Sequence record: PQ249397
Strand: one strand, 5' to 3'
Length of the DNA stretch: 64,000 nucleotides
Origin: Escherichia phage Pu-Krd-SF3
In this document: positions 46,664 through 47,049 of the stretch, one piece after another
Layout: every line of letters starts with the position of its first letter
How positions within the stretch are numbered: the stretch's first letter is position 1
The notes under the pieces: model-generated
What the model was told of the DNA's origin: nothing
What the model saw: only the letters and a program-made list of their open reading frames with translations
The model's database searches: none
Made by a program: the position numbers and the translations under genes

Positions 46664-47049
46664 ATGGAACTTATTACAGAATTATTTGACGGCGCTTCGG
46701 CGCCGGTTGTTAACTTAAATCCTAAGCATAAAATACCTCAAATTTTTGCTATTCAAGCCGGTGAAGAAAGTGTGCTTCCTGGATTTAGATTTTGTACATA
46801 CACCTCTGGCGGTGATACGAATAAAACGTTAAGCCGGGCGATAAAATGATGCATATCGTAATGATAGGTGTTAATGAGAAACTATCATTAGTTAAGCTTA
46901 AAAACTTGGGTGGAAATCCAATTGGTGTCATTAATGCTGTTTTTGATACTGCTCTTCAAACAATGAAACAGTATAAAATCGACGCATGCCTATTACGCGT
47001 ACTAAAAAGTTCAAAATGTAGTTTACAAGTCCCTCATGTTGTGTTATAG
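46664..47049 (+). pseudogene. frameshifted and truncated alt paralogue (N-terminal ~130 codons only)
   Basis: two overlapping ORFs (61 and 67 aa) that together align with Alt residues 1-130 (MELITELFD...CTYTSGGDTN // MMHIV...MKQYKIDACLLRVLKS) across a +1 frameshift, then end. Confidence 0.5.

Follow-up and report, generated by a model that had tools for sequence, protein, structure and literature searches.

Organization of the alt Locus

The stretch of DNA analyzed here, 64,000 nucleotides of Escherichia phage Pu-Krd-SF3 (PQ249397) and hereafter called the window, is assigned to Tequatrovirus, the T4-like phages. Across positions 44300-47500 it is 100% identical to Escherichia phage Pu-Krd-SF4, and T4 shows 96.8% identity to the window. 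On the + strand, the DNA ligase gene (gene 30; 42911-44374) is followed by alt.1 (44371-44559; 62 aa), which hits PF24647, a recent addition to Pfam called "Phage blade protein" (E = 1.9e-29), and then by alt (44612-46660), two small ORFs corresponding to alt.-1 (46664-46849; 61 aa) and alt.-2 (46846-47049; 67 aa), and alt.-3 (47082-47372). The baseplate gene 54 (47401-48366, - strand) converges on this block. The alt gene is intact and encodes a capsid-borne ADP-ribosyltransferase of 682 aa, named Alt in T4 and in PQ759884, in which the Pfam domain ADPrib_exo_Tox covers residues 374-614 (E = 1.3e-33) and which matches the Alt family profile phrog_802 with E = 8e-262. Two successive ATG codons (44609 and 44612) open the alt frame; database records use the second (MELITE...), and the mechanical ORF call begins one codon earlier. 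A UUCG-tetraloop terminator (AGGCC-TTCG-GGCCT with a T-rich tail, around 44561-44583) lies after alt.1 and before the late promoter of alt.

The first alt copy itself is mosaic among T-even phages. Compared with alt of the window, that of T2 (LC348380, 1866-3959; 697 aa) shows 93% identity over the first 815 nt, about 71% at T2 nt 984-1085 and about 73% over the last ~860 nt (T2 nt 1237-2094), with nothing aligned between these matching stretches. In vB_EcoM_G2540-3 (MK327944), which bears the remnant described below and has a locus 58 nt longer than that of the window, the first alt is annotated as two ORFs (413-2143 and 2193-2519 of locus 413-2519). This split annotation suggests that alt may be disrupted there, and the phage is perhaps without either capsid ADP-ribosyltransferase.

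Similarity of the Two Small ORFs to alt

An earlier reading of the sequence, here called the original prediction, had noticed two short overlapping ORFs immediately after alt and had taken them for a decayed second copy of that gene. Both are present at 46664-47049: alt.-1, whose ATG is separated from the alt stop codon by only 3 nt, encodes MELITELFDGAS...GGDTNKTLSRAIK, and alt.-2 encodes MMHIV...LLRVLKSSKCSLQVPHVVL. The ATG of alt.-2 overlaps the stop codon of alt.-1 in the sequence ATGA. Their similarity to alt is far above chance. A blastn search of the whole window aligned the remnant with alt at 44609-44941 (67.8% identity over 335 nt, E = 5e-23), so that the refutation foreseen for the prediction, namely a lack of nucleotide similarity, fails. 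At the protein level (blastp), residues 1-56 of alt.-1 correspond to Alt 1-57 (61%, E = 6e-23) and residues 1-55 of alt.-2 to Alt 63-117 (62%, E = 1e-21), and on phrog_802 the two ORFs cover positions 2-59 and 64-120 (E = 8e-19 and 9e-20, respectively). The first 28 nt of the remnant, and thus the first nine residues (MELITELFD), are identical to those of alt. The ORFs had been said to recapitulate Alt residues 1 to about 130; they do recapitulate the N-terminus, but the homology stops at residue 117.

The remnant is therefore homologous to the N-terminal module of Alt, and what would be one uninterrupted frame of about 680 aa is replaced by two ORFs (61 and 67 aa) that lie in different frames. 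Neither small ORF has a Pfam hit, and the ADP-ribosyltransferase catalytic domain, with its R / S-T-S / E-x-E motifs, is missing from the remnant. The frames are not related by a +1 shift as had been proposed: with 182 nt between the two starts, the frame of alt.-2 is -1 (equivalent to +2) relative to that of alt.-1, in keeping with the loss of one A.

Alt2, the Parent Gene

Where does this second copy come from? Some close relatives have two full-length ADP-ribosyltransferase genes in tandem at this locus, encoding 684 and 685 aa in vB_EcoM_G10400 and 697 and 685 aa in T2. The second gene, directly downstream of alt, is given the working name Alt2. The search for an intact second ADP-ribosyltransferase in related phages that had been suggested with the original prediction thus finds one, a 685-aa copy at the same locus, in both G10400 and T2. 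By blastn, window 46600-47010 matches the start of Alt2 (G10400 locus 2804-3215, 97.8%), and window 47002-47420 matches the end of Alt2 and its downstream flank (G10400 locus 4906-5324, 98.8%). An identity of 97.8% to Alt2 of sister phages, as against 68% to the adjacent alt, indicates that the remnant was not derived from the neighboring alt. It is the orthologue of an intact second gene in sister phages, and the proposal that it is what remains of a second alt copy is thereby borne out.

Intact Alt2 has its own ADPrib_exo_Tox domain (PF03496; residues 413-620, E = 4.5e-20), and the motifs YRGQ, FVSTS and EAEVILPRG, which are gone from the remnant, align between Alt and the intact Alt2 copy. 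A search of PDB sequences with Alt2 gave no match. Over the N-terminal module of about 235 aa, Alt and Alt2 share 56-76% identity per 50-column alignment window, and over the central and C-terminal parts 18-49%. As the remnant is 97.8% identical to Alt2 of sister phages and only 68% to the adjacent alt, the duplication behind Alt2 is old, and Alt2 is a separate, anciently diverged paralogue of the capsid type. The low identity outside the N-terminal module suggests that Alt2 probably has targets other than those of Alt. Among four intact copies pN/pS is 0.04-0.07, nearly all differences being synonymous; such strong purifying selection implies that Alt2 is a working gene where present. Unlike the mosaic first alt copy of T-even phages, Alt2 is uniform between T2 and G10400 (96.6% identity over the full length).

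Two protein families of "unknown function", phrog_23015 and phrog_15247 (profile lengths 61 and 67), turn out to be the two halves of the pseudogene: alt.-1 matches the former and alt.-2 the latter. Since intact Alt2 matches both of them, at residues 1-56 and 62-117, respectively, these families are artefacts of fragments annotated as genes.

Deletion and Frameshift in the Remnant

Comparison with intact Alt2 allows the whole remnant (46664-47021, + strand) to be read as nt 1-348 of the ancestral coding sequence, short of one A and fused to the gene's final 11 nt, with the original Alt2 stop codon TAG kept at 47019-47021. The junction is marked by the sole remaining copy of a 9-bp direct repeat, CTAAAAAGT, at 47002-47010 (+ strand). 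In intact Alt2 this sequence occurs twice, at coding nt 340-348 and 2039-2047. The 1,699 bp lost between the repeats took away codons 117-679 and with them the whole ADP-ribosyltransferase domain. As read from the sequence, this loss bears the classic signature of a deletion between short direct repeats, which would have been slipped-strand or microhomology-mediated. Since 1,699 is not a multiple of three (remainder 1), the frame changes at the junction, skips the ancestral TAG and closes at a TAG at 47047-47049, and the last 12 aa of alt.-2, SKCSLQVPHVVL, are a read-through of the ancestral 3′ end and of the spacer beyond it.

A second lesion lies in a run of A residues at 46823-46826 (+ strand). 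The intact copies have five As (GAATAAAAACG), whereas the window has four (GAATAAAACG; alignment with G10400). In the window and T4, the loss of this one A splits what was left of the gene into alt.-1 and alt.-2. The shifted frame meets a TGA lying over the ancestral Met-Met codons, which explains why alt.-2 starts with MM and overlaps alt.-1 in ATGA. Thus alt.-1 is composed of Alt2 codons 1-54, seven frameshifted codons and TGA, and alt.-2 of Alt2 codons 62-116, starting from the natural Met-Met pair, and 12 out-of-frame codons. Relative to its intact orthologue, the remnant therefore carries two disabling lesions, deletions of 1,699 bp and of 1 nt.

Decay of the Remnant in Different Lineages

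Thirteen of the ~90 remnant-bearing records were aligned and read base by base: those of the window, T4, e11/2, G2540-3, N2, fPS-2, AV119, PD112, ESh36, ACG-C40, F1 and two IMG/VR contigs. The deletion junction is identical in all 13, and the other lesions differ from lineage to lineage. N2 has the deletion only and encodes an unbroken ORF of 128 aa. In fPS-2 and AV119, codon 6 is changed to a stop codon (GAA to TAA, E6) and the A5 run is kept. The window, T4, e11/2, G2540-3 and the two IMG/VR contigs have the A-run frameshift only, and PD112, ESh36, ACG-C40 and F1 have both this frameshift and the codon-6 stop, to which PD112 has added the loss of one T from a T5 run and F1 a 9-bp deletion. 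In total, the A4 run is found in 10 of the 13 remnants, and A5 in N2, fPS-2, AV119 and all four intact copies. In 12 of the 13, alt.-2 has kept an open frame.

The common junction, together with the lack of frameshift and stop in N2, indicates that the point lesions are younger than the large deletion. The order of events was as follows. An ancestor lost 1,699 bp of Alt2, out of frame, between the two 9-bp direct repeats; separate lineages then gained different disabling mutations; and in the window and T4 the change from A5 to A4 divided the remnant into the two annotated ORFs. The original prediction had envisaged a tandem duplication followed by frameshift and deletion. The duplication and both kinds of lesion are there, but the duplication is old and the deletion preceded the point lesions.

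How selection acts on the remnant can be seen from the alleles private to it, which comprise eight non-synonymous changes and one nonsense change against seven synonymous ones, whereas in four intact copies the corresponding 116 codons show 19 synonymous polymorphisms and a single non-synonymous one (Fisher p = 0.0017); with a reference set of four, some "remnant-private" alleles may occur in other intact genes, and free recombination among T-even phages blurs such a polymorphism-based test. Lineage-specific lesions and relaxed selection are thus both found among the 13 remnants, with the small intact set as reference. Conservation of the two ORFs as independent genes, which would have spoken against the original prediction, is not what is seen: constraint is relaxed, and codon 6 is a stop in 6 of the 13. 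With an intact orthologue at the same locus in close relatives, disabling lesions relative to it and decay across lineages, 46664-47021 is very probably a non-functional pseudogene remnant of Alt2, the second, anciently diverged alt paralogue, and we infer that no function of it is kept up by selection.

The remnants of fPS-2 and AV119 contain a run of variants that are otherwise found in intact T2 Alt2, and the remnant of the window resembles the G10400 allele. At codon 111, fPS-2 and AV119 also keep TTC, and 10 of the 13 remnants have TTA. The T2-like variants imply either that the deletion between the 9-bp repeats recurred or that remnant and intact alleles recombined later; recombination between the two kinds of allele is likely.

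Distribution among Phages

In IMG/VR, two loci had an exact match to the junction and five were found with the Alt2 protein. Such numbers would not carry a survey of the population, and GenBank phage records were used for this reason. The deleted interior of Alt2 (1.67 kb) was found in 407 phage records, with at least 80% coverage in 402. A 211-nt probe centered on the junction matched in one piece in 90 of the 498 phage records that it hit, and in the remaining ones its two halves lie about 1.7 kb apart. These counts are of records rather than of independent lineages, and include duplicates and laboratory T4 stocks. Intact Alt2 is thus the common state and the T4-type remnant the minority state. 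T4 is atypical: in about four-fifths of related records a second Alt-like enzyme is intact and under strong constraint. The sampled carriers of the remnant include phages of E. coli, Shigella and Yersinia, and the countries recorded for some of them are Russia, Denmark, China and Canada.

The junction probe matched in three places per record. A third alt copy or gene conversion was considered as the cause and rejected, as the matches are due to a repeat of the alt.-3 promoter cassette. This 54-nt cassette (47021-47074) follows directly after the ancestral Alt2 stop and recurs at 34086-34139 with 94% identity, and the second copy explains the number of places. It lies upstream of an ORF at 34144-34650, which in turn follows an ORF at 32922-34082 that, going by the T4 map, probably encodes RNA ligase. 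The cassette has the form GTTTACA...TG-T-TATAGT, resembling a T4 early promoter, and its long stem-loop also covers the downstream ribosome-binding site. From its sequence it looks like the regulatory cassettes called PeSL (promoter-early stem-loop; Arbiol, 2010; Comeau, 2014; PMC2839356, PMC4122927).

Could the loss of Alt2 have been adaptive rather than neutral? The deletion would then spread by recombination, or recur, because injecting Alt2 puts a phage at a disadvantage on some hosts. A single deletion allele occurs in ~90 of ~500 Tequatrovirus records, in which both the neighboring alt allele and the 5′ haplotype vary, the latter being T2-like in fPS-2 and AV119, for example. We regard adaptive loss as rather unlikely. 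If it were true, injected Alt2 could, for example, trigger a defence system, and T4, the model phage, would lack a fourth ADP-ribosyltransferase, one that most related phages keep under strong constraint and that has so far gone uncharacterized.

Expression and Possible Functions of the Remnant

The consensus of T4 late promoters is well established. A match to it, TATAAATA (44581-44588, + strand), was read from the sequence 23 nt upstream of the alt start, and is the probable source of an RNA that covers alt and continues into the remnant. A terminator scan found none on the + strand between alt and alt.-3. In time-resolved omics of T4, alt.-1 and alt.-2 fall in the RNA class of alt and their protein class is "NA", and alt.-3 is early for both RNA and protein (PMC9697503, Table S2; the order of the columns, protein class and then RNA class, being inferred from Table S4). 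With a gap of 3 nt, no terminator and the same RNA class as alt, the remnant is, on the simplest reading, transcribed as the 3′ trailing part of alt mRNA; it would have no promoter of its own and be carried on the alt transcript. An AAGGA located 6 nt upstream of the alt.-1 ATG is a plausible Shine-Dalgarno sequence. This site and the ATGA overlap at alt.-2 suggest that short peptides may be translated.

These features bring up an alternative in which alt.-1, alt.-2 or both are functional small genes; for instance, the 61-aa peptide might enter the prohead or compete with the packaging or processing of Alt. The region is transcribed in T4 (PMC9697503), a ribosome-binding site precedes alt.-1, and the ATGA overlap would suit re-initiation at alt.-2. 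The idea of a packaged peptide fits what is known of Alt: gpAlt belongs to the prohead core and loses a small N-terminal peptide to the gp21 protease (PMC9958956), an N-terminal targeting sequence of about 10 aa suffices to load internal proteins into the capsid (PMC7697877), and alt.-1 retains the N-terminal MELITELFD of Alt unchanged. However, the codon-6 stop closes alt.-1 in 6 of the 13 remnants, alt.-2 is truncated in PD112 and has the 9-bp deletion in F1, and the remnant-private ratio of nine non-synonymous to seven synonymous changes, against 1:19 in intact copies, is not that of a gene under constraint. The overlap itself is the automatic product of a frame shift over the ancestral AAA-ATG-ATG. 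Neither ORF has a protein class in T4 proteomics (PMC9697503), which is weak evidence, since proteins of 61-67 aa are easily missed. A role as small genes is thus very improbable.

Equally small is the chance that the DNA has been kept for roles in cis, as a 3′ trailer of alt mRNA with a hairpin and as a spacer before the early promoter of alt.-3. A C(UUCG)G hairpin, CGGCGC-TTCG-GCGCCG, is found at 46690-46705, in codons 9-14 of the remnant and 27 nt after the ATG (-12.8 kcal/mol in the centroid structure). It is present in 13 of 13 remnants and in both aligned intact Alt2 genes, invariant in all 15 sequences with variable positions nearby, and is missing at the equivalent position of alt. As far as the sequence can tell, it might play a role in the 3′ stability of alt mRNA or in the translation of Alt2. 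The early-promoter-like site upstream of alt.-3 (47022-47076, + strand; TTTACA-17-TATAGT with TG, 10/12, the best promoter match of the region) overlaps a strong stem-loop (-23.4 kcal/mol, z = -4.5, none of 200 shuffles as good); it lies outside the pseudogene and was spared by the deletion, which ends 11 nt before it. Against these roles, the hairpin also lies within the intact coding sequence, and its conservation may reflect short-term inheritance. The 91-nt region around it (46640-46730) folds no better than shuffled controls (z = -0.64), no T-run follows it as would be expected of a terminator, and indels are tolerated elsewhere in the remnant.

A third alternative is that the remnant was never full-length, being a partial duplication of the 5′ end of the present alt into which a stop codon came afterwards. 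The older T4 reference record, AF158101, words it in this way, its note stating that the two ORFs [quoted passage not shown], and the identity of the first 28 nt to alt is in its favor. It is contradicted by the identity to Alt2, by the junction and by the positions of the repeat: the remnant is far closer to the start of the complete second gene in sister phages (97.8%) than to alt (68%), its final 11 nt, together with the flank beyond them, match the Alt2 3′ end (98.8%), and its breakpoints fall on a 9-bp direct repeat found twice in intact Alt2. The later note in the T4T record also says that the two ORFs [quoted passage not shown]. A partial duplication is accordingly extremely unlikely.

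Finally, programmed -1 frameshifting or transcriptional slippage at the A run, fusing the ORFs into a 128-aa Alt2 fragment, can practically be dismissed: the ORFs do overlap at an A-rich stretch, with the second in the -1 frame, and N2 encodes such a 128-aa ORF without any shift, but AAU-AAA-ACG does not fit the slippery heptamer X-XXY-YYZ, no stimulatory structure was observed, a polymerase needs more than four As to slip efficiently, and the codon-6 stop lies upstream in many lineages.

Comparison with Known Systems

The pseudogene identity of alt.-1 and alt.-2 is already known: the annotation of T4 explained the remnant two decades ago, and the copy in fPS-2 is annotated as a "putative pseudogene". 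Nolan et al. (2006; PMC1524935) listed T4 alt.-1/alt.-2 among paralogous duplications of alt and reported a full-length alt duplicate in 44RR; alt is not discussed in Petrov et al. (2010). What is added here is the exact breakpoints and the repeat, the order of events, the frequencies in the population and the spectrum of secondary decay. Most new genomes, including the window's own record, still label alt.-1 and alt.-2 as "hypothetical protein", and these entries should be marked as pieces of a single pseudogene. The locus provides a clean, base-resolved case of gene death in a lytic phage, in which a microhomology deletion was followed by independent point decay, and the constrained second Alt-like enzyme of T4 relatives appears to have been uncharacterized so far.

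The closest known counterpart is T4 itself. The original prediction had suggested that the small ORFs of T4 may be the same remnant, and they are: alt.-1 (61 aa) and alt.-2 (67 aa) of T4 (AAD42534 and AAD42535; AF158101, HM137666) are equal in length to those of the window and likewise lie between alt and alt.-3, with the same A4 frameshift and junction and 97.6% nucleotide identity to the window over 425 nt. T4 differs by a few points, such as N17T in alt.-1 and the tail NQAIK, which is SRAIK in the window. Alt2 of T2 (BBC14817, "hypothetical protein T2_202") and of G10400 (QBO63712) is orthologous and also lies between alt and alt.-3, its codons 1-116 and last 11 nt being 97-99% identical to the remnant of the window. 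Unlike the remnant, which is without 1,699 bp, it encodes 685 aa with an ADPrib_exo_Tox domain and is under purifying selection.

T4 gpAlt, the capsid-packaged ADP-ribosyltransferase of RNA polymerase, is a paralogue of Alt2 with a similar N-terminal module and a catalytic domain of the same family; the remnant differs from it in having none of the diverged central and C-terminal part left. Adjacent ADP-ribosyltransferase paralogues have arisen repeatedly in T4-like phages, as seen in modA/modB of T4, in 44RRORF187c (the full-length alt duplicate) and 44RRORF188c, and in RB49ORF183c, and T4 alt.-1/alt.-2 have been grouped with such tandem ADP-ribosyltransferase and alt duplications (Nolan et al., 2006; PMC1524935). 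The duplications in 44RR and RB49 and that of modA/modB differ from the remnant in being separate events, in distant phages, and in that some of the copies are full-length.
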